Origin: Candidatus Poseidoniales archaeon
GTDB lineage: Archaea > Thermoplasmatota > Poseidoniia > Poseidoniales > Poseidoniaceae
Direction of reading: 5' to 3'
Length of the DNA stretch: 64,000 bases
Assembly: GCA_038105035.1 (NCBI GenBank)
Contig: JAYOBT010000006.1
Coordinates: 4,704 to 68,703 of the forward strand
Part shown: one piece after another, positions 44,637 to 62,395 of the stretch
Layout of the letters: the number at the start of each line of letters is the position of its first letter
Position numbering within the stretch: the stretch's first letter is position 1
Notes under the pieces: model-generated
What the model saw: only the letters and a program-made list of their open reading frames with translations
Databases searched by the model: none
Told to the model about the DNA's origin: nothing
Program-made: the position numbers and the translations under genes

Positions 44637-47600
44637 ATGCAATCTAACGTGCCTCATCGGAAACCCCTGAGCGTCCTGCTCATCCTTCTGATGATTGGCG
44701 TTGTACTTACACCATTGAGCGCACACGCTGCGGATTCGGATGGAGACGGTGTCGACAACTCTGTCGACGATTGCCCATATGCTAGCGGTACATCGACGGT
44801 CGATCGAGATGGGTGCCCCGATCGTGATGGCGATGGTACGTCCGACTTGATGGATGGTTGGACGAGTCAGAATCCAAATTTCGTTCTCAATGCAAACAAT
44901 CCACGTAGCTCTGATTTCAACGATGTTGATTTCTCTCCGAACGGCTCGGAAGTTGCAACTTCAAGTGATGACGGATACATCCGAATCTGGAACACCTCAA
45001 CTGGGCAAAACACGCGCTCCGTTATCGCTGTCTCAGGCGGAGGTACAGGAAAATTGTCGTGGTCTGCAGATGGTCGCTTCATCGGCGTCACTTCTCAGGC
45101 TGCAGATGAATTTGACATCTTTTATGCATCCAACCTGACATCCGTCCATGGTGCTTTGTCATCCGACGTTGGCGGAGGCGACTACACCTATGACATTGAT
45201 ATCTCTCCTGACGGTTCTAAGGCTGCTGTAGCCATTGGCCGGTCTGGAAACGGAGGCACAAACGGTGTTGTCCGAGTTGTGGATGTTATCAATGGCACCG
45301 TTATGCAGAATCTCAATCCAGGTGGCGAAGACCGATTCCATTCCGTTGATTTCTCACCAAGTGGCTCGCACATGGCCATCGGAACGGTTGGCGATTACTA
45401 CGTCGTTGATGCTTCGAGTTGGGCAACGACCCGAAGTGAAAGCGCTCCTGCAGGTACTGTCAACTCCATTGCATGGTCTCCAAGCGGAGAGCACATCGCC
45501 GTGTGTGAAGGCTACGTCAACAGCCAGGGCGGCTCCCGATTGCGTCTCTTTGAGGTCGATGTATGGACCAACATACAGACCATCGCAGGTTCAACCTCTT
45601 GTTATGCAACTGACTTCTCGCCGGATGGCAACCAAGTTGTCTTCGGTATGGGATGGTATGCAGCAGATGGTGCAACGGCGAAGATCTATGAGGTCTCGAG
45701 TGGAACGCTCATTGACACATTTTCACAGAGTCGTCCTGGAGGATGTACATCAACAAACAACAACCAGTGCGGGCAAAACAACGGCGTCTCGTGGTCGCCC
45801 GATGGAGTCTACATCGCCCAAGCATTTGGCCGAAACAACGAGGGATTCTACATTTGGAAGAGCGACCTCGACCCGGACAACGATGGTTGGAACACCACCG
45901 ATCAAGGCGACGGTAAGGTCGATGAATTCCCAGATGATGGCACACAGTGGGCAGATTCTGATGGAGATGGATACGGCGACAACCCTGCCCCTGCACTCAA
46001 CCCTGACGAATGCCCACTTGTCTTCGGAAACTCAACCATGGACCGATTTGGCTGTCCTGATGCTGATGGCGATGGTTACTCAGACGAAAACGACTGGGCG
46101 CCGAGCAACAAAGAGCAGTGGATTGATACAGATGGCGACGGCCATGGTGACAACTATCTCTACGACATAGCCTCCAATCAACTCCATCTCAACCAGCGAG
46201 GTGATGCATTCCCGAACGACGATACGCAATGGAACGACACTGACGGTGACGGTTACGGCGACAACTACGAAGATGTCTCTTGGAACGAATACCGTGCACC
46301 TGAGTGGCCTGGTGAAATCATTGTTGGCGCTCAGAGCATCGACGTTTTCCCACTCGATCGAACCCAGTGGAGGGATACCGACGGAGATTGGGTTGGCGAT
46401 GAGCAAATGAGCGATCGAGCGGATGGTTGTCCAACGGTTTGGGGCAACTCAACCTACGACCGACTCGGATGCATTGACACCGATGGCGACGGCTACTCCG
46501 ATCCAGATGCAGGATGGCCCACACGAACTGATTGTTACGGAGCAGACGCGTTCCCGAACGATCCGACGCAATGGTGCGACGAGGACAACGATGGTTTCGG
46601 AAGCAACCCTGACGGAAACAACGCAGACGATTGTCCAAATCAAGCCGGACCTTCCTCCGAAGACCAATATGGATGTCCTGACCGAGACGGGGATGGTTAC
46701 TCGAATACGGGCGATCCATTCCCAGACGATGGCACGCAATGGGAAGATTCGGACGGTGACAACTACGGTGACAATCCTGATGGAAACAATCCAGACTTCT
46801 TCCCCGACGATGCATCACAATGGCGAGATTCCGATGGCGATGGGTATGGCGACAATCCTGGTGGCACCAACGGAGATCGATTCCCGAACGACCCAACGCA
46901 ATGGTCCGATGCTGACAACGACGGTTACGGAGACAACTTTGTCGATACCGATGGCGATGGCATTTCAGAAGGAAACTCCGACGTTTGTCCACAGACCTAT
47001 GGCGAATCCAACTCGGCATCATCCCGTGGATGCCCAGATTCCGATGGTGACGGTTTCACCGATCCTGAAGACGCCTTCCCGGACCAACCGCTCCAGTGGG
47101 CCGACCAAGACGGTGATGGTTTTGGCGACAACGTCCAGTTCACCGATGGTGACGAGTGCATCGATGTCTACGGCAAGAGCACGGAGAACGGTGTTCAAGG
47201 CTGCCCTGATTCCGATGGTGATGGTCATGCCGATCCCTTCGGTGACTTCGTTCCCAAATCCGATTGTACAGGTGCAGACGCCTTCCCGGACGACCCACTT
47301 CAGTGGTGTGACAAAGACGGTGATGGTGTTGGTGACAATTATGTCTTTACGAACATCACCGTTCCTGACGAAGAGAATACTGGATTGATGATTGAGCTTT
47401 GCGAACAAATTGGCGATGCCTTCCCGAACGATGCCACGCAATGGGCTGACATGGATTGCGATGGCCGCGGTGACAACAGCACCGGTATCGCTCCAGACGC
47501 CTTCCCACTGCGTAAGACACAGCAAGACGACAACGATGGTGATGGATACGGAAACAACTTCACAAACGGTGCATATCAACCGGACGAATGCCGAAACGAG

Positions 47601-48113
47601 TTTGGAACATCAACCACGGATAGGTACGGTTGTCCAGACAGTGATAGCGACGGTATGTCCGACTTGAACGATCCGTGCAAGTGGGACCCTGCCGTTTCAG
47701 TAGGTATTCCCGGGCAAGTCACGTGTTCGATTACAGAAGATCCAAACAAAGCCGACGAGGAAGAGACGGTTGCTGAAGTCGAGGCAAAATCATCCAATGT
47801 GATGCTGTATGCGATGGGCGGTATCATTGCGTTCATGCTCGCAGCCATTCTTGTTGCTATGCTCGCTCGACAAGCAAGTCGCAACAAGATGATGCGAGAG
47901 CGAGCCATCGAGCGAAAGGCCGAGGAACAGTTCATGGATGAAGAAGAGCGCCGCCAACAATGGATCGACTACTACGTCGCTAACGGTGAATTCGACAAAG
48001 CACGTGAACTTGGTTGGGTTGATCCTGCATCGCTTCCAGCATGGAAACAGCATGAGATTCAGCAACAAGAAGCACTCCAAGCATCCATCCCATCCATGCT
48101 TGACCTGGATTGA
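44637..48113 (+). CDS. giant surface protein: signal peptide, 2 TSP3 repeats, 7-blade WD40-like propeller, ~20 TSP3-like Ca-binding repeats, TM, ~80-aa cytoplasmic tail
   Basis: Signal peptide LSVLLILLMIGVVLTPLSAHA. Blades include FSPNGSEVATSSDDGYIRIWN, WSADGRFIGV, ISPDGSKAAV, FSPSGSHMAIG, WSPSGEHIAV, FSPDGNQVVFG and WSPDGVYIAQ. Repeated D.DGDG(Y/F/H)(G/S)D(N/P) units follow. The TM is VMLYAMGGIIAFMLAAILVAML. Confidence 0.85.
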   Translation: MQSNVPHRKPLSVLLILLMIGVVLTPLSAHAADSDGDGVDNSVDDCPYASGTSTVDRDGCPDRDGDGTSDLMDGWTSQNPNFVLNANNPRSSDFNDVDFSPNGSEVATSSDDGYIRIWNTSTGQNTRSVIAVSGGGTGKLSWSADGRFIGVTSQAADEFDIFYASNLTSVHGALSSDVGGGDYTYDIDISPDGSKAAVAIGRSGNGGTNGVVRVVDVINGTVMQNLNPGGEDRFHSVDFSPSGSHMAIGTVGDYYVVDASSWATTRSESAPAGTVNSIAWSPSGEHIAVCEGYVNSQGGSRLRLFEVDVWTNIQTIAGSTSCYATDFSPDGNQVVFGMGWYAADGATAKIYEVSSGTLIDTFSQSRPGGCTSTNNNQCGQNNGVSWSPDGVYIAQAFGRNNEGFYIWKSDLDPDNDGWNTTDQGDGKVDEFPDDGTQWADSDGDGYGDNPAPALNPDECPLVFGNSTMDRFGCPDADGDGYSDENDWAPSNKEQWIDTDGDGHGDNYLYDIASNQLHLNQRGDAFPNDDTQWNDTDGDGYGDNYEDVSWNEYRAPEWPGEIIVGAQSIDVFPLDRTQWRDTDGDWVGDEQMSDRADGCPTVWGNSTYDRLGCIDTDGDGYSDPDAGWPTRTDCYGADAFPNDPTQWCDEDNDGFGSNPDGNNADDCPNQAGPSSEDQYGCPDRDGDGYSNTGDPFPDDGTQWEDSDGDNYGDNPDGNNPDFFPDDASQWRDSDGDGYGDNPGGTNGDRFPNDPTQWSDADNDGYGDNFVDTDGDGISEGNSDVCPQTYGESNSASSRGCPDSDGDGFTDPEDAFPDQPLQWADQDGDGFGDNVQFTDGDECIDVYGKSTENGVQGCPDSDGDGHADPFGDFVPKSDCTGADAFPDDPLQWCDKDGDGVGDNYVFTNITVPDEENTGLMIELCEQIGDAFPNDATQWADMDCDGRGDNSTGIAPDAFPLRKTQQDDNDGDGYGNNFTNGAYQPDECRNEFGTSTTDRYGCPDSDSDGMSDLNDPCKWDPAVSVGIPGQVTCSITEDPNKADEEETVAEVEAKSSNVMLYAMGGIIAFMLAAILVAMLARQASRNKMMRERAIERKAEEQFMDEEERRQQWIDYYVANGEFDKARELGWVDPASLPAWKQHEIQQQEALQASIPSMLDLD
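45864..47678 (+). repeat. coding array of ~20 degenerate thrombospondin type-3-like (DxDxDGxxDxxD) calcium-binding repeats
   Basis: Units seen include DSDGDGYGDN (twice), DTDGDGYGDN, DADGDGYSDE, DTDGDGHGDN, DRDGDGYSNT, DQDGDGFGDN and DKDGDGVGDN. Spacers are of the F-P-x-D-x-T-Q-W type. Confidence 0.85.
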
Positions 48114-48167: not shown

Positions 48168-50747
48168 ATGGGAGAGGGGCGTATGCGTCGTCTTGTTGCA
48201 ACATCCATGGTGATGTTGCTCGTTCTTCTCATCCCAGTAAGTGCTGAAGAAACTGCCACGGTTCGTCTCGAAATCGAGACATTGGATGAGAATTCCAAGC
48301 CTTGGTATGGCGCAGGAGATCGTGTTCTTTTCGCCTCTTCCATCGTCAACGAAGGTGCTGCAACCTCAATCACTGAAGACCCGTCATGTGGCGTCATCAT
48401 GCGTGTGGCCGATGCAGCGGGTACAACCATTCTTGACGAAGGCACAACATGTCGAGGACAAAGCCGTGGTCTTGACATCGGAGCAGGTACAACAGATCTG
48501 GACCAACATTCTTGGGATTTGACCGATCAAGATGGTGAACTGGTTTCTGCAGGACTCTATTCCATCAGCATCGAACTTGCAGGATCTGGACTTTCAGCAA
48601 CATCCGAAGTTATGGTTCAACAAAACGCTGGCATTCCACCAGAGTTGATCTTCTCAACCTCCATCGCACATCGAGAAGATGTGTTGTCCCTTGGTGAGCC
48701 ATTCGTCGTCGCTTACGAACTTCACAACCCAACGTCGGAAGCTATCGACATCAGTGGTCTTGATGCTTGTCAACTTCTGATTTCCTTTGAAGAGCAACAG
48801 CTCGGCCCATCATGCAATGCAGGCACAACGACCATCGATGCCTATGCTGTTCTCGGATTGGGCCACACCATGCACCAAGCGACATCAATCGACGCCCCCA
48901 CGCTAACGATTGAAACGCCTGATGCTCAAGTCATCGGTTCGTTCGAACTCTCTGTACAAGATGACGAAACCCTCTCAACTCCGCTTGATGCCTCGGTCAA
49001 CACACTCTCGACCTCCTTCCTCCAAGGCGAATTGTTTGGAGGTTCCCTTACGCTTGAAAACGATGGAAGCGAGAACGAACTGTTGCGCTTCACCAACACA
49101 TGTCGCGCCAGCTATTGGATTGCAGGTGGCGACGGTGTTGTGTTCGATTCTCTCGATCAAGCCAACTGTCGAGCGGCTGAGCTCGACGTGATCGTGGGTG
49201 CATCCTCGCAAACCACATTCCCTCTTCAGTCCTGGGCTTTTGTCGATGAAACCGGTTGTTCCATGTTGAGCGGTGACTACGTCCTCGTCGCTGAAATACC
49301 CGAATTCGGTTACGCTGCCTCAATGGATGTTGACTACCGTCGCATTCAGTCCACAGATTGTGGGACCGTATCCGAACCTCTCACATCTCTGTCCATCGAT
49401 CTTGATGACAACGATGAAGCATTGTTCGAATTGCAACTCGTTGGAATGGACGAGGAAACCGATATTCGCTGGCTGGAAATCTGCAAGGCATCGCTCCAAT
49501 TGTGGAACCTTGACCTCACTGAGAAGGTCATTGAAAAGAACGTCCTCTGCAACAGTGATGTTCAGGTCGACCAAGCCCTTCGAATCTCCTCAGAGGATGT
49601 TCTTCGATTCGAACTTGAAGAATTGAACACCTTCGAGTACCAAGACGCGGAATATCGAGTTCGAATCGATCTGGCAACGGACCAAGATATGATGCTCGAG
49701 TATGAATTCTCGTGGCCGTTGAACGTCGATGTTGAAGAAGCGGTGATTGTTGAAGAAGACGTCGCAGCAGACGCTCCAATCGTTCTCGTCGATGGTGTTT
49801 GGAGTGGCGTCTTGACACCAGACGGAACCTGCTGGATGCTTGAAAACGATGCAGGCGTCATTCACATGCTCGCAGATGCGACCATGGCTTCTTGGGCACC
49901 AGAGCGTGGATTGACGGGCACCTACCAAGCCCAACAAACAGATGCAAACCAGGCTTGTACACGATTCACCGCTGACAGTTTCACATTTGTCGGAATTGTA
50001 CAGGAAATTCCATTGATTGAAGAATCGCCCGCTGTCGAAGAATCATCCATCGTCGAGAACGAAGTTGTCGAGCAAGAAGCGCTCCCCGCCTGGGCACCAC
50101 AAGCGGTGACTGTACTCACAGTAAGCGCGATTCTCTCCATGCTTGGCTTTGCTGCTTTCAACAACGAAGCGATTCGTATCTCGACCACTCTCACAGGATT
50201 GTGGTTCCTCGGTCTGATCGGTAAAACCTCAGAGACAAGCGATGGGCGATTCCAACGCGGACGACTGCTTGGTTACCTTACAGCAAACCCTGGTTGTCAC
50301 TTCCGTGCTCTCTTGTCTGCTTTGGACATGAGCAACGGACAACTCTCTCATCACCTTCGAGTTCTCGAACAAGAAGAAAGCATCTGGCGACGTAAGGACG
50401 GTCGCTTGGTACGCTACTACCCATTGACCAACACGCTCCATCCATTGCTTGAGGATGATGCACTACCAGTGCCAATTCTCGCTCCTGATCCTCTTTCGCT
50501 TCAAGGCAAAATTCTGGTTTTGCTCGATCATGACAGTCAAATGGGAGACTTCCCTACCCAAGCTGAACTCGCAAAGCGACTCGACAAATCCCAACAACTC
50601 ATCTCCCACCATCTCCGTACCTTGGAGAAATACGGCCTCATCGAAGGACGACGTATGGGCATGCGCAACCGCTACAAACTCACCAAGGAAGCAATGTTCC
50701 TTTTGGAGACCAGCGAAGCATACGTACAGAACGAGATGAACCTCTGA
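48168..50747 (+). CDS. membrane-anchored transcription regulator: ~630-aa extracytoplasmic Cys-paired Ig-like repeats, 2 TM, two C-terminal ArsR-type winged-helix domains
   Basis: Signal/TM MRRLVATSMVMLLVLLIPVSA. TMs are AVTVLTVSAILSMLGFAAF and LTGLWFLGLIG. wHTH 1 is GRLLGYLTANPGCHFRALLSALDMSNGQLSHHLRVLEQEESIWRRKDGRLVRYYPL. wHTH 2 is QGKILVLLDH...FPTQAELAKRLDKSQQLISHHLRTLEKYGLIEGRRMGMRNRYKLT. Confidence 0.75.
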   Translation: MGEGRMRRLVATSMVMLLVLLIPVSAEETATVRLEIETLDENSKPWYGAGDRVLFASSIVNEGAATSITEDPSCGVIMRVADAAGTTILDEGTTCRGQSRGLDIGAGTTDLDQHSWDLTDQDGELVSAGLYSISIELAGSGLSATSEVMVQQNAGIPPELIFSTSIAHREDVLSLGEPFVVAYELHNPTSEAIDISGLDACQLLISFEEQQLGPSCNAGTTTIDAYAVLGLGHTMHQATSIDAPTLTIETPDAQVIGSFELSVQDDETLSTPLDASVNTLSTSFLQGELFGGSLTLENDGSENELLRFTNTCRASYWIAGGDGVVFDSLDQANCRAAELDVIVGASSQTTFPLQSWAFVDETGCSMLSGDYVLVAEIPEFGYAASMDVDYRRIQSTDCGTVSEPLTSLSIDLDDNDEALFELQLVGMDEETDIRWLEICKASLQLWNLDLTEKVIEKNVLCNSDVQVDQALRISSEDVLRFELEELNTFEYQDAEYRVRIDLATDQDMMLEYEFSWPLNVDVEEAVIVEEDVAADAPIVLVDGVWSGVLTPDGTCWMLENDAGVIHMLADATMASWAPERGLTGTYQAQQTDANQACTRFTADSFTFVGIVQEIPLIEESPAVEESSIVENEVVEQEALPAWAPQAVTVLTVSAILSMLGFAAFNNEAIRISTTLTGLWFLGLIGKTSETSDGRFQRGRLLGYLTANPGCHFRALLSALDMSNGQLSHHLRVLEQEESIWRRKDGRLVRYYPLTNTLHPLLEDDALPVPILAPDPLSLQGKILVLLDHDSQMGDFPTQAELAKRLDKSQQLISHHLRTLEKYGLIEGRRMGMRNRYKLTKEAMFLLETSEAYVQNEMNL

Positions 50748-50826: not shown

Positions 50827-53640
50827 ATGAAGACGACGGATGAAGTTGCATGGCAACAAGCATGGACCGATGCTAACGTCTTCGGTTCAAGTGATGATGC
50901 ATCCAAACCGAAATTCTACTGTTTGGAAATGTATCCGTATCCTTCCGGAAAAATGCACATGGGACACGTTCGAAACTATTCGATTGGCGATGCTGTTGCC
51001 CGTTACAAGCGGATGAAAGGTTTCAACGTCCTTTACCCAATGGGATTTGATTCGTTTGGAATGCCTGCAGAAAATGCTGCCATAGCTGAAGGTGGGCATC
51101 CTCATGACATCACCGAGAAGAACATGGCCTCCATTACGGAACAGATCAAGCGCATGGGATTCTCGTACGACTGGAGTCGATTGGTCAAGAGTCACGATCC
51201 GAATTATTACAAGTGGAACCAATTGTTCTTCACCCGCTTTTTCAATTCAGGACTCGCCTATCGTGAGTTTGCTCCAGTCAATTGGTGCGAATCCTGTTCA
51301 ACGGTCCTTGCCAACGAACAAGTCAAAGCGGGCCGATGCTGGCGATGCAACGGTCCTGTACGACAAAAGGACATGAGCCAATGGTTCATTGACATCACCA
51401 AGTACGCTCAACAATTGCTCGATGGACTCGATACCATCGAGTTTCCAGAAAGTGTTCGGTTGATGCAAGAGGACTGGCTTGGCCGTTCCGAAGGAGCAGA
51501 AATCGAATTCGGTATTGAAGGGAGTGAGGAAACCATCCGCGTTTTCACAACCCGGCCTGACACCCTGTTTGGCGTCACCTTCGTCACGCTCGCACCGGAA
51601 CACCCCCTTGCAGAACAACTGGTCAAAGGGACCGAGTATGAGGCGGGCTGGCAAGCCATGCACGATGTGTATGCCAACATGAGCGAGTTCGATCGAATCA
51701 AGAATCTCAACAAGAAGGAAGGTGTTTCTCTCGGGCGCTTTGCTATCCACCCGCTTACTGGTGAGAAAATTCCAATCTGGGCAGGTAACTTTGTTCTCGC
51801 TACCTACGGAACGGGAGCTGTCATGGCTGTTCCTGGTCATGATGAACGCGATTTTGACTTTGCCAAAACATACGATTTGCCAATCAAGCGTGTGCTCATC
51901 GAAAACGAGAACGATGATGCTGATGAAGAACTTGAATCAGCCTATACGGAAGATGGATACATGGTTCATTCAGGAATGGATGGATTCGATGGCCGCTTCG
52001 GAGATGCTGCGCGTACGGCTGTTATCGATGCCCTCGAAACCGCTGGAAAGGGCGATCGTCGAGTCAATTGGAAGATTCGCCCTTGGCTCATCAGTCGCCA
52101 GCGTTACTGGGGCACACCGATTCCAATCATCCACTGTGAGGACTGTGGAGCCGTTCCTGTTCCTGAAGATCAACTGCCAGTTGAACTTCCACGCGACGTT
52201 GTCTTCGATGGGAAAGGAAATCCATTGGAAACATCAGAATCATTCCTTAACGTAGATTGCCCCAAGTGCGGTAAGCCTGCACGAAGAGAAACCGATACGA
52301 TGGATACGTTTGTTGATTCATCGTGGTACTTCTTGCGCTATACCGATGCCAACAACCTCGAACAATGGTACGATGCAGACATCGCTGATTATTGGATGAA
52401 CGTTGATTTCTATTGTGGGGGAATCGAACATGCACAAATGCACCTGATTTACGCCCGTTTCTACACCAAGGCGCTTCGCGATCTTGGCTTCCATAGTATT
52501 GATGAACCATTCAACGAATTGCTCTGTCAAGGCATGGTCAACAAGAGCGCCCCTTTCTGTGAAACCTGTTCCGTGACCCTCTCGGTCGATCATGCTGGCT
52601 CACCATGTCCGCATTGCAATTCACCACTCGGTGAACGCTCTGCAAAAATGAGCAAATCGCTCGGTAACACGGTTTCTCCTGAACAGATGATCGAACAATT
52701 CGGGGCCGATACGGTTCGCTTGTTCATTCTCTTTGCTGCAAATCCGACCGCTGGAATGGACTGGTCCGATTCCGCTGTTGAAGCCAATCATCGAGTGATG
52801 CAACAACTGCAAACGATGCCTGACCAACTCCTTGGATGGAACAAGCCTGCCCATTCCATCGATGATTGGATGATGGCTCGACTCCGACAACGCCTCCAAC
52901 AATGGTCCGATGCGATGGACCGATACGACTTGCGTCGAGCTGTCGAATGCTCCCACTATGACATGGTCAAAGACATCAACTGGTACGTACGTCGCGGAGG
53001 AGGCAATGCTGAAATCGGCCGAACATTGCTTCACTCATGGACCCACATGATCGGCATCGCCACACCGCATCTTGCAGAAGATTGGTGGGCGCAACTTGGT
53101 GGAGAGGGACTCCTCGCTACGCATGTCATGGACGACATTCAGGCCGTCAGCGAAGAAGATCAGGCCGTCCTCGATGGAGAAGCATTGATTCGAGATCTCC
53201 TCGAACAAGCACGAAAAGTTCGCAGTGTTGCTGAGCGACACATCGATGGGGAAGCAACATCGCTCACCATCGTCACCTCCGCACCATGGAGAAACACCAT
53301 GGCAGAAATGGCATTAACACATCTTTCCGAAGGAAACAACGTCAAGACCTTCATGGGCATTTTGACCCAATCCGAACTCGCTCAAGGTGAAACACGGGGT
53401 GAACGACTCGGATTCTGGAACAAGCGCATGCTACCTCAAGTGTTCAAGTGGGACGATGAAAAGAAGCGAATTCTTCTTTCAACACTTGATGAAACACAGG
53501 TCTATGCTAATGCTTCCAACTTCATCGCAGAAGAACTCGGTCTTGCATCGGTACGCATCGTCCGTGGTGAAGGCGAAGAGGATGAAACAGGGAAAGCAGG
53601 CGTTGCGATGCCACTTTCACCCGCATTCATCTATGCTTGA
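50827..53640 (+). CDS. leuS: leucyl-tRNA synthetase
   Basis: The first in-frame ATG is at 50827; the track start at 50791 is GTG. Contains [15 protein letters not shown] (HIGH), TRPDT, [19 protein letters not shown] (CP1 editing) and KMSKS. Confidence 0.9.
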   Translation: [937 protein letters not shown]

Positions 53641-56336
53641 GTCTCTTCTCCGACCGGTTCCGAAGAAGCCTCAGGCGCAGTTGCTGGTTCGGTTTCAAGT
53701 GTTGGAACCGCTTTCTGTTGTGGTTGATTCGTCGGTGCCTTGACTGGTTTGAACGTGAAATAGCCAGCAACACAAGCAAGAGCGAGTGCAACCAAGATCA
53801 GAATTTGATTGATTCCAAAGGAAGAATCAGAACTTTCACTCTTGTTCTCAACAATGATCAAAGTACAACCATCCGAATCGACCTGTTCGCCAAGAGGTGT
53901 TGAAGGGCATAGGTCATCATCGTTCAGGATTCCATCGGAATCAGAATCAGCTTGTTCGGAGGAACATCCCGCACCATTGACAACAGTACTCAATGGTGTC
54001 CTTGGACAGATATCGGCATCGTTGAGAACTCCGTCTGCATCGTCGTCCACGTCTTCTTCACCATCGACACATCCGTCCGCATCGAAGTCTTGGGAAGGCA
54101 ACACTGGTCCAACAAGACCACGCGGGCACAGGTCGAAGATGTCTTCGAAACCATCGCCATCGTCATCGTCGTCTTCTTCGTCATCATGGCAACCATCCTG
54201 ATCACGATCGAGTGATGTATCGGTCGCATTCCAATCTCGGAACCCCTTTGGACACATATCGAGCTGGTTCGATCCAATCATATCGAGCATCATATCGTTG
54301 TCATCATCAAGGTCGTTGATGCTGTCTTGACAACCATCACGATCCCAGTCGTTCATTTCTGTTGAATCCCACAAAGCGAGATCACGTGGACAACCGTCCT
54401 CGATGTTGACGATTCCATCCCCATCCTCATCCAAGTCGCAAGCATCGCCAATGGAGTCACCATCAAGGTCTTCCTGTCCAGCGTTTGAAGTGCTTGGACA
54501 GTTGTCACGTTGATCAACAAAACCATCTTCATCCGTATCGAAGTCTGAACATCCATCTCCCTCAACGTCGGTTTCCAGAGTTGAGACCCATCCGATTGGA
54601 CCCTTCGGACACGAGTCAAGGTGGTCGTAGACTGTGTCGTTGTCATCATCAAAATCCTCGTCTGCATCACGGCATCCATCGCTGTCGTGATCGGTTGAAC
54701 CGCTGCTTGTCCAGCCAACTTCGCCTTGTTGACAGACGTCAAGATCGTCAGCAATCCCATCGTTATCGTCGTCATCATCGCAGACATCACCAAACACATC
54801 CGATTCGAAGTTCGCTTGGTCTGAATTGGACACTCTTGGACAATTGTCGATACCATCGAGCACACCGTCACCATCAAGATCGGTCTCATAGTGCCAGACA
54901 CCACCATCTTGTCCACCTACTGAAACCACAGAATGGTTACCGTACATACCTGAATCTTCGAATGAGAAGGCGATAAGAGAACCACCTGAAGAAGAGGAAA
55001 CCATGTCGTAAACACGGTCCCGGCCATCGCTTCCACCAGTGAGCGCCCACAACCAACCATCATTGAAATCGTATTCACCGAGGAAAATGTCGGTTCCAAA
55101 GTACCCCGTATCATCGTCGTAGTCAACCAAGGTTTCGCCACCGAGGGTGAACGTATACGTTGTCACACCAGCATAGATGACCGAACCAGATGCTGTTCGA
55201 TATGCTGCACTGTACATATCGTAACCCGAACCACCCTCAACAATGAGTCCGTCCCAGGCCCCATTGGTGGTGATGTCGGCTCGGAAAGCATCGAACCATT
55301 GTGTGGTCTCACTGTAATCCGTCCCGAACGTCGAATTGCCCTCAATGGTTCCGTAGACTTGCACATCCAATCCAGCCCCTGCAACGCAGCCGTTGACCAG
55401 GTCGTCGCCTGTGCCACCCGCTTGTTGCAACCAAATCCAACTGGCCGCATCGTATTTGGCGACAACGATGTCACCGCCACCGTTTGAATCAATAGAACCA
55501 ACCTCATCGAATGCGAGTTGTCCAATGAACGTGAAGGCGATGAACGTATCACCAACGCTGTTCTGACAGAAGCCACCAAAGGGCTCAACACCGTCTTCTG
55601 ACATGGCAGTAAATCCGTTGGTGAAGGTTCCGTATTCATCGAAAAGCATCACTGCAAGACTGGATTGGGAGCCACCAGCAAAAATGGTCTGATTCATATC
55701 AAGAAGTTCCTTGAACAATACACTCACATGGATTCGATCGTATTCATCAACAAACATATCGAACATCAAAATCTCTTGTTGGTTAGAGATGGAAACAGCC
55801 CATTGCCAACCAGTTTCAACGTCGTATCGAGCGATGTAGGCATTGCCCTCGTCAGAATCTGAATCCTTGTCCAATGTTGGAAGAGACCCCAAGGTCATGT
55901 TGCATTGAAGGCCTGCACTGCCAAGGCAATAATTGCCTGCAATGATGAAATCACCATCGCTCATCAAAGCAAGAGCATCCACGGAATCGACTCCGATGCT
56001 ACCGAACGATTCACTGAAATTCCAATCGTTGGTCTCGTTCGAGATGGCAATGAAACCATCCATGTCATCGAATCCAAGCTGGTTGGAATCGTGTCCGTTA
56101 TCGCCAATCAAGATTGAAGAAGTGAAACTACCGCCAACGAGAACGGAGTTGTTGGATAGAGGTGCAAGTGCATTGATGGAATCTTCTCCAAAGCCACCAA
56201 CTGTGACTGCCCATCCCAACGGTTCCGACTCCTCACCGTTGAATTGTGGAGAAATTTCAGCATCGAGAACCTCTGCTTGAGGGTGAGGCATTGTTGCGAG
56301 AAGGAGTGCAAAAACGATGAACAATGGACGAAGCAT
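53631..56336 (-). CDS. giant surface protein: signal peptide, SBBP-like beta-propeller region, ~10 Cys-containing TSP3-like repeats, C-terminal TM
   Basis: Start set at the ATG at 56336 (MLRPLFIVFALLLATMPHPQA). The N-terminal half has repeated ..GG.G.D......D.....G.F.. propeller-like units. Next come DLDGDGVLDGIDNCP, DHDSDGCRDADEDFDDDND, DLDEDGDGIVNIEDGCP and DSDSDGILNDDDLCP. The TM is ILILVALALACVAGYFTF. Confidence 0.8.
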   Translation of the reverse strand: MLRPLFIVFALLLATMPHPQAEVLDAEISPQFNGEESEPLGWAVTVGGFGEDSINALAPLSNNSVLVGGSFTSSILIGDNGHDSNQLGFDDMDGFIAISNETNDWNFSESFGSIGVDSVDALALMSDGDFIIAGNYCLGSAGLQCNMTLGSLPTLDKDSDSDEGNAYIARYDVETGWQWAVSISNQQEILMFDMFVDEYDRIHVSVLFKELLDMNQTIFAGGSQSSLAVMLFDEYGTFTNGFTAMSEDGVEPFGGFCQNSVGDTFIAFTFIGQLAFDEVGSIDSNGGGDIVVAKYDAASWIWLQQAGGTGDDLVNGCVAGAGLDVQVYGTIEGNSTFGTDYSETTQWFDAFRADITTNGAWDGLIVEGGSGYDMYSAAYRTASGSVIYAGVTTYTFTLGGETLVDYDDDTGYFGTDIFLGEYDFNDGWLWALTGGSDGRDRVYDMVSSSSGGSLIAFSFEDSGMYGNHSVVSVGGQDGGVWHYETDLDGDGVLDGIDNCPRVSNSDQANFESDVFGDVCDDDDDNDGIADDLDVCQQGEVGWTSSGSTDHDSDGCRDADEDFDDDNDTVYDHLDSCPKGPIGWVSTLETDVEGDGCSDFDTDEDGFVDQRDNCPSTSNAGQEDLDGDSIGDACDLDEDGDGIVNIEDGCPRDLALWDSTEMNDWDRDGCQDSINDLDDDNDMMLDMIGSNQLDMCPKGFRDWNATDTSLDRDQDGCHDDEEDDDDDGDGFEDIFDLCPRGLVGPVLPSQDFDADGCVDGEEDVDDDADGVLNDADICPRTPLSTVVNGAGCSSEQADSDSDGILNDDDLCPSTPLGEQVDSDGCTLIIVENKSESSDSSFGINQILILVALALACVAGYFTFKPVKAPTNQPQQKAVPTLETEPATAPEASSEPVGEETQA

Positions 56337-56436
56337 AGTCTTGTGATGAACTGCCACTTCATGAAGGTGTTGCGTTACAGTCCATTCACTTGTTTGTGAC
56401 GATTGGTTCAAAGACGGTCGACGTCGAGGTCCAACC

Positions 56437-57483
56437 ATGTCCCAAGGTCGTAAGCCAAAACGCAGCGGTCAGGGGCGGCAACGAAACCGTCGTCGCTACG
56501 GCGGCCCGCGCAAAGCCAATCTGATTGAACAATCGAAGAAAGAACTTCTCGAATACAATCAACGAGCCAACAACCGATTCGATTATGAGAAAACAGGTAT
56601 CCAGCCGGTCGGATTACCAGATGATTCATCAAACGCGAAATCCTTCTCATTTACGTGGAAATGCAACCCAGTCCGCCTCACGGATGAAGAGAAAATGGCC
56701 GATTTTGTCGTTCGCAAGGGTGAATTCGGTTGGCTCGATGATGACCGTGTCGATGAGATCGCGAACTTTGCTGAACCTCTTTCTATCTCAGCAGACCAGG
56801 CCCTGTCCCTTCGCTCAGCTCTTCTCCAGCAGAAGACCGTCTATGGCCACTCAACCATGCGGAATCGTGGTCGTCAAATCCACCGTGATTACAAGCAAGG
56901 AATGTCGGTGGTCGATTTGTCCAAGAAATACGACTTCCCCCCGATGAACATCTTTCGACAAATCCTCGCCGAGAAAGGATGGTCGAAGACGAAAATCAAG
57001 GAAGCCGTTCGGGCACCATCTCGTTTTTCAGAACGTGAACGAAAAGAATTCGAAGCTGCAGAGGAAGCTGATCGAGTCTCAAACGTTGACCAAAGCGAGA
57101 CCCACCTTCGGGCCGATGTGTTTGAGAACATTCTTGCCGATTGGTTTGAAGAGCAAGGTGTGCGACTTCGCCGTCAACCTGAACTTGTCAAAGAACAATC
57201 GATTGAGATCGGCGGTCCAAAACTAACGCCAGATATTCTGTTCCTCGACCATGTTGAGATCAATGGCCAACCGGTTGCATGGATTGATGCAAAACACTTC
57301 TACGGGGCTGATGTTGGGTTCCAACGCAAGAAGATGTCCAAACAAATGATGCGTTACATCAACGAATGGGGAAGTGGAGCCATCGTTTTCAGGCATGGAT
57401 TCTCAGAAAATCTGTACATGGCTGGCGTGACCATGTTGGACGCCAGTCCTTTGGACCTCTCTGAATTGCAAGACCGACCTTAG
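56437..57483 (+). CDS. TPD-motif PD-(D/E)XK nuclease-fold protein (CDIN1/C15orf41-like) with a basic N-terminal tail and HTH-like middle region
   Basis: The C-terminal region is ...ADVFENILADWFEEQGV...KLTPDILFLDHVEINGQPVAWIDAKHFYG: a helix E, then PD, then D-A-K. The middle region is YKQGMSVVDLSKKYDFPPMNIFRQIL. The N-terminus is MSQGRKPKRSGQGRQRNRRRYGGPRK. Confidence 0.6.
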   Translation: MSQGRKPKRSGQGRQRNRRRYGGPRKANLIEQSKKELLEYNQRANNRFDYEKTGIQPVGLPDDSSNAKSFSFTWKCNPVRLTDEEKMADFVVRKGEFGWLDDDRVDEIANFAEPLSISADQALSLRSALLQQKTVYGHSTMRNRGRQIHRDYKQGMSVVDLSKKYDFPPMNIFRQILAEKGWSKTKIKEAVRAPSRFSERERKEFEAAEEADRVSNVDQSETHLRADVFENILADWFEEQGVRLRRQPELVKEQSIEIGGPKLTPDILFLDHVEINGQPVAWIDAKHFYGADVGFQRKKMSKQMMRYINEWGSGAIVFRHGFSENLYMAGVTMLDASPLDLSELQDRP

Positions 57484-58511
57484 TCAACTCGCTGCGGAGC
57501 GATTCGGGTAACAAGTGAGTCCAAGTCAATGGAACGGAGGCGCTCGGAAAGATGTCGTAAATCACCCTCGTCAAGAGGTTGATTGGCTTTCGCAGGAAGG
57601 AGGACACACGATGTTCCAAGCATACACAATCGTGCCCTAATCTGTGCTTGAAGATTCAATTCGTTAATCGTAGATTGAACTGAAGCGAGCATCGATTGCC
57701 TAGAAGGCTCTTCCAACATCTTGGACATTCGGCCAAACGTTTGTGCTTCCTTCAACAGTTCATTCCAAATCGATGCATCCCATCGTTTCGAAGCGAGACG
57801 GTCCACTGCAGCATCGCCTGCACGTGTAATGCTTGATTTCCAGTCAGGATGATCGATGTATTCCGATGTATGCTTGGATTCACTTGATTGCCAAACCAAT
57901 AGGACATGCGAGTCGAGTGAGAAACTTTGAGCAACCCCAGGAGAAGGCGGAGAACCTGGATGTGTTCGAAGTTCAACACCTCCAACATAGAGCCCGAGTA
58001 CGTCGCCGAGACCTCCAGAATATCGTCGTTCAATGTGATGAGCAGCTCTGAAGTACTGCGGTATCGACCCTTTCTCAGTCATTTGATAACAAGCCAAAGC
58101 CAGTGCTGAAAGACCTGCAGCAGACATACCAAACCCTTGACTGAGTGGTAATTCGATTTCAACTTGAATGGAATAATTGGCATCCATTGGAAGAAGACGC
58201 GCTTGGCGCAGTTCATCGATGAGATCGTCGTACATTTGCTGACTGAGTGATTCATTCGGTATGTGCGCATTGATGATGACTTCGGTGATACCCTTCGATT
58301 TGACATCGGGAATGTCTTGATCCCAACCAGCCATCTCTTGGCCTGCTTCGATAACCTCACTTCGACCCGTTTCCTGAATTGAGACGGAAACACCATGCTC
58401 AAGACAAAGACCTGCTCCCCGACTTCCTTGATTTCGGGGGAGAAGAGCATCGTCATGGATTGAAAACAGCAAGGTGATGTGTCCACCAACCCGAACTGTT
58501 GCCATAGTCAT
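57480..58511 (-). CDS. pantoate kinase (archaeal CoA pathway, GHMP superfamily)
   Basis: GGHITLLFSI...GSRGAGLCLEHGVSV, LPLSQGFGMSAAGLSALALA and GGLGDVLGLYVGGVELRTHPGSP parallel the remembered Thermococcus pantoate kinase motifs (HITAFF, GSLGAGV, GFGNSAGGAL, GGLGDVIGQLAGGIEVR). Confidence 0.75.
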   Translation of the reverse strand: MTMATVRVGGHITLLFSIHDDALLPRNQGSRGAGLCLEHGVSVSIQETGRSEVIEAGQEMAGWDQDIPDVKSKGITEVIINAHIPNESLSQQMYDDLIDELRQARLLPMDANYSIQVEIELPLSQGFGMSAAGLSALALACYQMTEKGSIPQYFRAAHHIERRYSGGLGDVLGLYVGGVELRTHPGSPPSPGVAQSFSLDSHVLLVWQSSESKHTSEYIDHPDWKSSITRAGDAAVDRLASKRWDASIWNELLKEAQTFGRMSKMLEEPSRQSMLASVQSTINELNLQAQIRARLCMLGTSCVLLPAKANQPLDEGDLRHLSERLRSIDLDSLVTRIAPQRVD

Positions 58512-61117: not shown

Positions 61118-62395
61118 TCAGGTATCAGAATTATGAGGATATTGAACACAAAGGAGGAGATGATTTGAGGTTGTATGTCGCGTCAAAAACGCTTTCCTGC
61201 GGCCTTGTCGGTTGCGAAGCTGTCGATCGATGCTTCCTTGCAGACGAGGTTGAAGCGTCGCTTCAAGACCACAACGAATCGTCAACGCCGAAATGTCGTT
61301 GTCGAGGGCAGTTGCAACAATCGTGTCGATGTTGGCCTCATTAAGAGGAACATCGAGGAGTTCGACAACCCGGCCTGAGGCGACAACAAATGGGTGGGTA
61401 TCGTCTTTCAACGGCCCATTGTGATGAATGCGTGGACGGCGAGGTGATGCATCTGCCCATCGAACATCCGAAGCAGTACTCAGTTGCTCGCTTAACCATG
61501 CATCAACAAGTCCACTCTCGACCAAAGCCGCATCAAGAATCGTCACCCATTCGTTTCGACGTACTGGCTGCAAACCAACTCGTTCAAATTGAATTGTTTC
61601 CTGTTGTTCGATGACGGCATCCTCGCCGCCAAAAGTACGTGAGAGACGAACAAATCGCTTGCTGATAGCAGGGGTTGCAACACCACCAAGCCAGAGTTCA
61701 AGTCGATCCACACGTCCACCCCCACGAGACATCCACGTCCACGTCCGCTCAATGTCTGGCCAGAACGAATCAACGATGGCTTCAACGCCATCTCGAAGTT
61801 CTTGCGTCAATCGAGGAGAGAGGTCGAGCACGATACAAGGTCCACGGCTGGTGGAGGCAAGATACGGTTTCCATGCTTCGAACACGCTCGGCAGGTTGGG
61901 TTGCATCTCGTCAAGGTCGTGCGTTCGTGAGTTACGTGGACGAGCAGGGTCAAGCATGAGCACTGCAACACTGTTCGATTCAAGCCCAACCGCTGAAGCG
62001 ATAGCATCGCTCGCAGTTCCATCACCTGATACGACGAGCGAACGACGGTGCCATCCTTGATCGTACGAAGCGTAGTGACGAGCTACAGTGTTGAGATTCA
62101 GACAACTCGCAACTGCACGGTCACGGTCCAGTTCAATCCCGAGAGCGGGTTGCTTGAGACGTGAAGCATAAGCCGCCAATTGTATCCCTGAGCCACAAGC
62201 GCAATCGAGCAGCTTTCCCTTCGGCAGGTCGAATTGCGCCAAATAATCCGCTCGTGTCATGGCTACTTGCCATGGTGTTGCGAGTGGTTTTCCCTCACTC
62301 GCATGAAAAAACGAAAGATCGCTGAACGATGCATCTGGAACCGATAGACCCGTTTCGGTCTGTTCAGATGGCACCAGAACATCCAATTCAGTCAC
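61118..62395 (-). CDS. class I SAM-dependent methyltransferase (TGS1/Methyltransf_15-like layout) with a ~220-aa C-terminal domain
   Basis: LLDCACGSGIQLAAYA (motif I), LGIELDRDRA (motif II), and VLMLDPARP (motif IV position). The start is GTG at 62395, abutting the pyrE stop. The next Met is 45 codons in. Confidence 0.65.
   Translation of the reverse strand: MTELDVLVPSEQTETGLSVPDASFSDLSFFHASEGKPLATPWQVAMTRADYLAQFDLPKGKLLDCACGSGIQLAAYASRLKQPALGIELDRDRAVASCLNLNTVARHYASYDQGWHRRSLVVSGDGTASDAIASAVGLESNSVAVLMLDPARPRNSRTHDLDEMQPNLPSVFEAWKPYLASTSRGPCIVLDLSPRLTQELRDGVEAIVDSFWPDIERTWTWMSRGGGRVDRLELWLGGVATPAISKRFVRLSRTFGGEDAVIEQQETIQFERVGLQPVRRNEWVTILDAALVESGLVDAWLSEQLSTASDVRWADASPRRPRIHHNGPLKDDTHPFVVASGRVVELLDVPLNEANIDTIVATALDNDISALTIRCGLEATLQPRLQGSIDRQLRNRQGRRKAFLTRHTTSNHLLLCVQYPHNSDT

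Follow-up and report, generated by a model that had tools for sequence, protein, structure and literature searches.

The window analysed in this study is a stretch of 64,000 nucleotides from the genome of a Poseidoniaceae (Marine Group II) archaeon (assembly GCA_038105035.1, contig JAYOBT010000006.1). The gene of interest lies on its forward strand at 56437–57483 and encodes a protein of 348 amino acids, followed by a stop codon. The original prediction, which was based on the DNA alone, described the product as a nuclease-fold protein with a TPD motif that resembles human CDIN1 (C15orf41). CDIN1 is a human disease gene, responsible for congenital dyserythropoietic anaemia type I. The open reading frame (ORF) was confirmed at this position by the ORF listing, a match to Pfam family TPD (PF14811), homologues of the same length (348 amino acids, 86–97% identity, from Candidatus Poseidoniaceae), and the ratio of non-synonymous to synonymous changes (pN/pS) reported below. 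A Shine-Dalgarno-like GAGGT (56426–56430, forward strand) precedes the ATG at 56437 with a spacer of 6 nt, which supports this ATG as the start codon. The GC content of the gene is unremarkable.

The annotation itself is already known. NCBI lists near-identical proteins as 'TPD domain-containing protein' or 'C15orf41 family protein', and orthologues in Euryarchaeota were stated in 2020, with an E-value of 1e-34 between the human and archaeal proteins compared to 1e-12 between human and choanoflagellate (PMC7092493). A prediction from 2013 describes C15orf41 as a PD-(D/E)XK nuclease that also has two helix-turn-helix (HTH) domains, and a similarity of CDIN1 to the resolvase Hjc has been remarked upon (both in PMC7261414). 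Two earlier studies did not detect nuclease activity of human CDIN1, and Holliday junctions, flaps and forks were left uncleaved (PMC7261414). In July 2026, human CDIN1 was reported to be a metal-dependent 3' exonuclease that acts on RNA, not on DNA, and needs a free 3' end; its catalytic residues are E166, D196, E214 and K216, and the positively charged coiled-coil (CC) domain of Codanin-1 feeds the substrate to it (PMC13463051). The remark in the original prediction that the function of CDIN1 is still unclear has been overtaken by this report. Codanin-1 is restricted to eukaryotes (PMC7092493). Here, we add a residue map of the archaeal protein onto human CDIN1, evidence that its N-terminal tail is under selection, its status as a core gene with a fixed neighbourhood throughout the order, and its position on a protist and giant-virus branch of the family rather than on the branch of human CDIN1 and other Thermoplasmatota.

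Family assignment and predicted fold

Membership in the TPD family, of which human CDIN1 is the founding member, was assessed with the Pfam profile, a check that the original prediction had proposed. The match (71.3 bits, E = 9.4e-20) is well over the gathering cut-off of 27 and places residues 201–329 on profile positions 5–127 of 138. When the whole genome was scanned, the score was 73.6 bits. All peptides on which the prediction had been based were found in the translation, namely ADVFENILADWFEEQG with E230 (also read in ADVFENIL), KLTPDILF with T264-P265-D266, WIDAKHFYG with D284 and K286, GMSVVDLSKKYDFPPMNIFRQIL at residues 155–177, and the basic N-terminus. The numbering of D266 and K286 was right as well.

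For the comparison with human CDIN1, we used a human sequence that was checked only by its length (281 amino acids) and by 20 of 20 residue positions published in two papers. Pairwise identity between the two proteins is only about 21% (BLAST, E = 5.6e-7). A profile of 127 homologues was aligned to the human protein by hhalign with a probability of 98% (E = 1.5e-13, 234 aligned columns), and this alignment covers both domains, with residues 81–327 of the window protein on residues 5–256 of human CDIN1. It equates E230, D266, D284 and K286 with E166, D196, E214 and K216, the published catalytic residues. D196A is the published nuclease-dead form of the human enzyme.

The putative catalytic residues are strongly conserved in the 127 aligned homologues, which come from archaea, protists and giant viruses. 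E230 (codon at 57124–57126), the catalytic Glu on the first core helix, D266 (57232–57234), the Asp of the TPD motif, P265 and K286 are invariant in 127 of 127 sequences. The (D/E)xK motif is formed by D284-A285-K286 (57286–57294), corresponding to E214-S215-K216 in the human protein; position 284 is D in 123 and E in 4 homologues, and position 264 is T in 123 and S in 4. D266 and D284 are 18 residues apart, exactly like D196 and E214. In the KYDFPP motif, P169 is invariant, and the nearby R174, which hhalign equates with human R101, a modelled nucleic-acid contact (PMC13463051), is nearly invariant. Two disease founder positions could also be mapped: F167 corresponds to human Y94, the site of Y94C, and V242 to human L178.

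The window protein and human CDIN1 are thus alike in their two-domain architecture, their catalytic tetrad, the D-18-(D/E)-x-K spacing and an HTH segment with KYDFPP or VDYAP. They differ in the motif around the lysine, which is ExK in the human protein and DxK in the window protein, and in the 80 extra N-terminal residues of the latter, including a polybasic tail.

The structure was predicted with AlphaFold2 from the alignment of 127 sequences (predicted local distance difference test, pLDDT, 93.9; predicted TM-score, pTM, 0.89), and a model from the single sequence (pLDDT 39.6) was discarded. Ahead of the part that aligns to human CDIN1, residues 27–80 (56515–56676) are predicted to form a helical extension with a short beta element (helices 26–45, strand 69–72, pLDDT >90); protist homologues can be aligned from about residue 56–66 on. 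Residues 81–215 (56677–57081) correspond to the N-domain of CDIN1 with its two HTH-like units. This domain is all-helical in the model, with eight helices between residues 102 and 211, and aligns to human residues 5–150. Its HTH-like segment, residues 155–179 (56899–56973), consists of helices 158–165 and 169–179 with a DFP turn between them. PHROG matches to HTH regulators (residues 138–198) were weak and non-significant.

The C-terminal PD-(D/E)XK nuclease domain, residues 216–348 (57082–57480), was delimited by the Pfam match, the model and the pN/pS values. The predicted order of elements is helix 220–239, strand 244–246, helix 247–258, strands 267–269, 272–275 and 282–286, helix 294–311 and strand 314–318. 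The alpha-beta-beta-beta-alpha-beta core, on which the original prediction had staked the assignment, is therefore present in this confident model, with helix 247–258 as an insertion. E230 is placed on helix 1, D266 directly before strand 2, and D284 and K286 on strand 3. The Pfam match, the hhalign alignment, the invariant tetrad and the order of the modelled fold together back a TPD-family PD-(D/E)XK nuclease with human CDIN1 as a relative.

When predicted viral structures were searched with Foldseek, the model matched TPD/CDIN1 proteins of giant viruses (E = 1.5e-25, TM-scores 0.72/0.82), including those of Powai lake megavirus (1e-12) and mimivirus ('CDAN1-interacting nuclease 1', 9e-9). 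Weak matches were obtained to viral proteins named 'endodeoxyribonuclease I', restriction enzymes, RecB-family and Mrr-like proteins. A search of PDB sequences with the window protein returned nothing relevant, and no solved CDIN1 structure. The family profile matched only T7 endonuclease I (3cae_A) among the PDB sequences, at a non-significant E-value of 0.66, with the Glu helix and the literal TPD motif of this enzyme aligned correctly. T7 endonuclease I and archaeal Hjc, both junction resolvases, are fellow members of the PD-(D/E)XK superfamily; they lack the N-terminal helical domain and cleave DNA. Membership of the window protein in the PD-(D/E)XK superfamily is accordingly an assignment from motifs, the predicted order of secondary structure and the family match, not from structural superposition.

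At the extreme N-terminus, residues 1–26 (56437–56514; MSQGRKPKRSGQGRQRNRRRYGGPRK) contain 11 K/R and 0 D/E, end in an RRYGGPRK motif, and are predicted to be disordered (pLDDT 57–74). Both the HTH-like helical domain and the added basic tail had been foreseen in the original prediction, and the modelled helices and the residue composition bear them out. Across the Poseidoniales, the tail varies in length, its basic character is constant, and the motif R/K-R-Y-G-(G/S/T)-(P/T)-x-K is kept. The maximum number of K/R per 25 residues has a median of 11 in Poseidoniales, 10 in the protist clade described below, and 2 in giant-virus proteins, which have no polybasic extension and a median of about 10 residues ahead of the core.

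Conservation of the gene and its neighbourhood

A PF14811 gene was found in 150 of 151 sampled Poseidoniales genomes, representing 22 of 22 genera, nearly always in one copy and without internal stops. To quantify selection, the gene was compared with eight orthologues from the same genus. The pN/pS was 0.09 overall, 0.058 in the nuclease domain, 0.074 in the N-domain, 0.18 in residues 27–80 and 0.175 in the tail, the last value indicating that the tail is translated and constrained. The gene is an intact single-copy core gene of the order, and it is under strong purifying selection that includes the tail. Two Poseidoniaceae genomes of one genus (g2) have a second TPD match (G044:C4:120240-120626 and G060:C8:601-1008), one of them inside an open frame of 940 amino acids. 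These matches may represent a duplication or a fusion that arose in this lineage.

Gene order around the TPD gene varies little among 20 genomes from three families: the gene for LeuRS lies on one side, and those for a GHMP kinase, RpoD, S11, S4 and S13 lie on the other. The kinase gene and the TPD gene are adjacent in 19 of these 20 genomes and convergent in 17. In the window, the two stop codons overlap by 4 nt (57480–57483), exactly as predicted. The original prediction had called the convergent gene (57480–58511, reverse strand) pantoate kinase. Its product is indeed a GHMP-family kinase, but the specific name is only plausible, as the scores against two NCBIfam pantoate-kinase models (66.5 and 57.9 bits) are far under the cut-offs of 380 and 500 bits, respectively. 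This kinase, whose gene holds the same position throughout the order, could be either a diverged pantoate kinase or some other GHMP kinase.

Upstream of the TPD gene, a divergent gene (53631–56438, reverse strand) encodes a secreted or anchored protein of 935 amino acids that combines calcium-binding thrombospondin type 3 repeats with a hydrophobic helix at the C-terminus. It had been described as a giant adhesin gene in the original prediction. Its longest ORF begins 2 nt within the TPD gene. The signal peptide MLRPLFIVFALLL, however, starts at an internal Met (56336), so that the two starts probably do not overlap and the true divergent intergenic region is 100 bp. The thrombospondin-repeat gene lies between the LeuRS and TPD genes in Poseidoniaceae alone; the other two families of the order do not have it there.

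Outside the Poseidoniales, the neighbours of the TPD gene in some other Thermoplasmatota include genes for the CCA-adding enzyme, Nop56/58 or HisRS. Neighbours with functions in translation and transcription are compatible with an RNA-related role, although they do not demonstrate one. In some lineages of the Thermoplasmatota, a co-directional gene for a Cas4-like/PDDEXK_1-like nuclease of about 330 amino acids comes next after the TPD gene (L039:1943-2929, L052:1999-2976 and L053:1989-2975). A homologue of this nuclease gene, not linked to the TPD gene, occurs in the genome of the window (G000:C39:10138-11238) as well as in 29 of 41 Poseidoniales. The streamlined, small-genome genera of family f3 lack it and have nonetheless retained the TPD gene.

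Other genes of the region were also inspected. Upstream of the LeuRS gene, the window contains a gene for a protein of 1158 amino acids with an N-terminal signal-like segment and WD40 beta-propeller repeats (44637–48113, forward strand). It is followed by a gene (48168–50747, forward strand) whose product of 859 amino acids has a hydrophobic segment at its N-terminus and, at its C-terminus, winged-helix domains of the HVO_0163 and ArsR/MarR types; this second gene adjoins the LeuRS gene in many Poseidoniales. On the other side, an ORF of 425 codons between the S13 and phosphoribosyltransferase genes (61118–62395, reverse strand) gave no Pfam match; it is kept in position in nearly all of the 20 Poseidoniales genomes, with 27–51% identity.

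Two branches of the TPD family

A survey of archaeal distribution, as suggested in the original prediction, was carried out within the Thermoplasmatota. A TPD gene is present in 170 of 301 genomes and 68 of 137 genera, Poseidoniales included. Methanosarcina likewise possesses a gene of this family. The proteins of other Thermoplasmatota, among them those of MGIII, which belongs to the class of the window organism, share with the window protein their archaeal origin, PF14811 and the nuclease motifs. They differ from it in sequence (20–32% identity), in length (about 244–336 amino acids from the first Met) and in having no basic tail. Their scores against the Pfam profile are also higher, with 123–167 bits for other Thermoplasmatota compared to 64–82 bits for Poseidoniales.

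The two archaeal types differ just as clearly in their distance from human CDIN1. Using blastp, we obtained E-values of 1e-20 to 4.5e-35 (27–37% identity) between human CDIN1 and the TPD proteins of other Thermoplasmatota, but only 5.6e-7 to 2e-3 with those of Poseidoniales. Human CDIN1 is also much closer to the non-Poseidoniales Thermoplasmatota than to the protist or giant-virus proteins. The blastp values reproduce the human-archaeal E-value of 1e-34 that was published, unexplained, in PMC7092493. The closeness of the human and Thermoplasmatota proteins may be a sign of a second link between archaea and eukaryotes within the family.

The best matches of the window protein outside the Poseidoniales were sought in a library of 1.8 billion representative proteins. 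The closest relatives show 40–50% identity; where they have named relatives, these are MMETSP transcripts and proteins of diatoms. Proteins of giant viruses, from Pacmanvirus A23 and from IMG/VR and GVMAG contigs of up to 455 kb, make up another two large groups of matches. The identities of the environmental clades were deduced from their few named members and from the giant-virus contigs in IMG/VR. The marine protist proteins (Cylindrotheca closterium 'CDAN1-interacting nuclease 1', Bacillariaceae sp. and MMETSP sequences) resemble the window protein in having a polybasic extension as well. In contrast to it, their N-terminal extensions are longer (median 118 residues), and some carry Cys-rich or Stc1-type zinc-finger modules. 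Their hosts are reported to have Codanin-1 (PMC7092493). The giant-virus TPD proteins (Pacmanvirus A23, Powai lake megavirus, Acanthamoeba polyphaga mimivirus and GVMAG contigs) share branch and fold with the window protein at 25–35% identity across both domains, but they have neither an N-terminal extension nor a basic tail, and they are viral proteins, not products of cellular core genes.

Two side observations concern these groups. Cys-rich N-terminal modules were seen in the protist proteins P0320, P0123 and P0124, and P0320 is recorded with an Stc1-type domain (PF12898) fused to PF14811; such a fusion is suggestive of a protist function linked to RNA or chromatin. The only prokaryote-labelled match to the giant-virus TPD clade (43% identity) is located on a contig of 1530 bp (L054, DAIDIC010000064.1) from a metagenome-assembled genome named 'Ktedonobacteria bacterium', and looks like mis-binning or contamination.

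Trees were calculated with IQ-TREE (LG+C20+F+G4, PMSF), with human CDIN1 as the sole metazoan sequence. The Poseidoniales are monophyletic (support 100/99). They are sister to the protist clade (96/96 and 98/92 in the two trees) and adjoin the giant-virus clades. A long branch (100/100), the deepest split in the tree, parts this side of it from the clade of Thermoplasmatota and MGIII, and human CDIN1 falls on the far side (100/100). Human and Poseidoniales proteins are thus on different branches, and no specific orthology of the window protein with metazoan CDIN1, represented by this one sequence, was found. In approximately unbiased (AU) topology tests, a clade of human CDIN1 and Poseidoniales was rejected (p-AU = 1.2e-6). 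A placement of the Poseidoniales next to the Thermoplasmatota side was disfavoured but not rejected (p-AU 0.058 and 0.067), and neither was a position of human CDIN1 as sister to, instead of nested in, the Thermoplasmatota clade (p = 0.26).

Together with the shared polybasic extension, these relationships make it likely that an old exchange across domains took place, with marine protists or their viruses on one side and the ancestor of the Poseidoniales on the other. A transfer from eukaryote to archaeon would be more parsimonious, because the other type persists in MGIII and in the remainder of the phylum. Since the AU tests did not reject the placement on the Thermoplasmatota side, we make no claim on the direction. 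A reverse transfer, or a basal position of the Poseidoniales on the protist and virus branch, may also account for the tree. Our tentative proposal, to which we give slightly less than even weight, is that the family contains two links between archaea and eukaryotes: the ancestor of the Poseidoniales swapped its gene with protists or giant viruses, and metazoan CDIN1 is, independently, nearest to the Thermoplasmatota type. According to this proposal, the ancestor would have exchanged a Thermoplasmatota-type gene, which is still found in the sister group MGIII, and the polybasic extension would have arrived along with the new version. In protists, the extension may be a nuclear or nucleolar targeting signal. 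In the archaea, it would have been kept through the history of the order as a built-in, nucleic-acid-binding feeder that makes the nuclease independent of Codanin-1.

Proposed function and significance

Considering the family assignment, the conservation and the phylogeny, we think that the protein is probably, though by no means certainly, a housekeeping, metal-dependent PD-(D/E)XK RNA nuclease of the CDIN1/TPD family that works independently of Codanin and belongs to the protist and giant-virus branch. As the catalytic tetrad and the architecture are the same as in human CDIN1, the same chemistry would be expected by analogy, i.e., that of a metal-dependent RNA 3' exonuclease. By the same analogy, hydrolysis would take place at RNA 3' ends within an A-form duplex (dsRNA or RNA:DNA), while the helical N-domain, including R174 (human R101), would grip the partner or opposite strand. 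No Codanin-1 was found in the genome, and we therefore propose that the lineage's own tail could take over the part of the feeder. The tail would then act in cis as a positively charged 'substrate feeder', a role played in humans by the coiled-coil domain of Codanin-1.

Several points weigh against this proposal. RNase activity is known only for the human enzyme, not for the branch of Poseidoniales, protists and giant viruses, and with only about 21% identity to human CDIN1 the substrate preference could differ. The idea of the tail as a feeder is an analogy with the human system. The search for Codanin-1_C (PF15296) gave no match in the genome of the window, nor did it in the control genomes, so that it had no positive control. 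A Foldseek search of the PDB returned nothing at E <= 0.001, the best match being BbvCI (E = 0.69), with McrB-McrC at rank 4. The hhalign map, the pairwise BLAST comparison, the trees that include human CDIN1 and the topology test all depend on the human sequence that was checked by its length and 20 published positions. Finally, the genome encodes an exosome, with three RNase PH-domain genes, and a general 3' RNA exonuclease is thus not obviously missing. A canonical Hjc is likewise encoded here (G000:C2), as it is in 20 of 21 relatives. With exosome and Hjc both present, the TPD protein is neither the sole 3' RNA exonuclease nor a needed resolvase, which argues for a specialised task on RNA or RNA:DNA hybrids. 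We considered the TPD protein as a stand-in for a missing exosome or a missing Hjc, and rejected this for the same reason.

The presence of Hjc also bears on an alternative in which the protein is a structure-specific DNA endonuclease, e.g., a resolvase of Holliday junctions or branched DNA. This would agree with the PD-(D/E)XK fold, with what was first predicted for C15orf41 in 2013, and with the noted similarity to Hjc (PMC7261414); branched DNA was also among the substrates named in the original prediction. T7 endonuclease I, with Glu and TPD aligned, is the only PDB match of the family profile, although a non-significant one, and the weak Foldseek matches include viral 'endodeoxyribonuclease I', restriction, RecB-family and Mrr-like proteins, BbvCI and McrC. 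Human CDIN1, however, was inactive on every DNA substrate and active on RNA (PMC13463051), and it did not cleave Holliday junctions, flaps or forks (PMC7261414). Moreover, no Hjc (PF01870) match was found among the Pfam matches of the TPD protein, and the resolvase function is already provided for in this genome and its relatives. We consider a DNA endonuclease unlikely.

It is also conceivable that the protein is catalytically inert, and that it binds nucleic acids or regulates as a pseudo-nuclease through its HTH-like domain and basic tail. Both parts are present, and the two earlier studies of human CDIN1 detected no activity (PMC7261414). This has since been superseded by the demonstration of activity of the human enzyme (PMC13463051). 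Since the catalytic residues are invariant or conservatively replaced in the 127 homologues and constraint on the gene is strongest in the nuclease domain (pN/pS 0.058), an inert protein seems very improbable to us. Many homologues are found in giant viruses, and PD-(D/E)XK nucleases are frequent in defence systems, which would fit an anti-virus defence or mobile-element nuclease gained recently from a giant virus or another virus. A single-copy core gene of the order, fixed at a housekeeping site by LeuRS and the S13-S4-S11-RpoD operon and unremarkable in GC content, makes such an origin hardly credible. None of the PADLOC defence families matched the protein at E <= 0.1, and a defence role was rejected. 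Likewise, a search of viral contigs revealed no close relative of the window protein, which led us to abandon a connection with viruses of these archaea.

The findings also affect the choice of a model protein. The original prediction hoped that this archaeal member could help to define the ancestral activity, but it is a weaker proxy than hoped for, because another archaeal type is closer to human CDIN1. Better stand-ins for the human enzyme are the TPD proteins of the remaining Thermoplasmatota, with matches to it at E-values of up to 4.5e-35. For structural and mechanistic work, a small prokaryotic homologue with no need of Codanin-1 could be more tractable. For the biology of the Poseidoniales, the gene is a universally retained core gene in one of the most abundant groups of archaea in the ocean, with its nearest relatives in marine protists and giant viruses. 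Given the shared habitat of these organisms, it is a plausible case of ancient exchange between domains of life.

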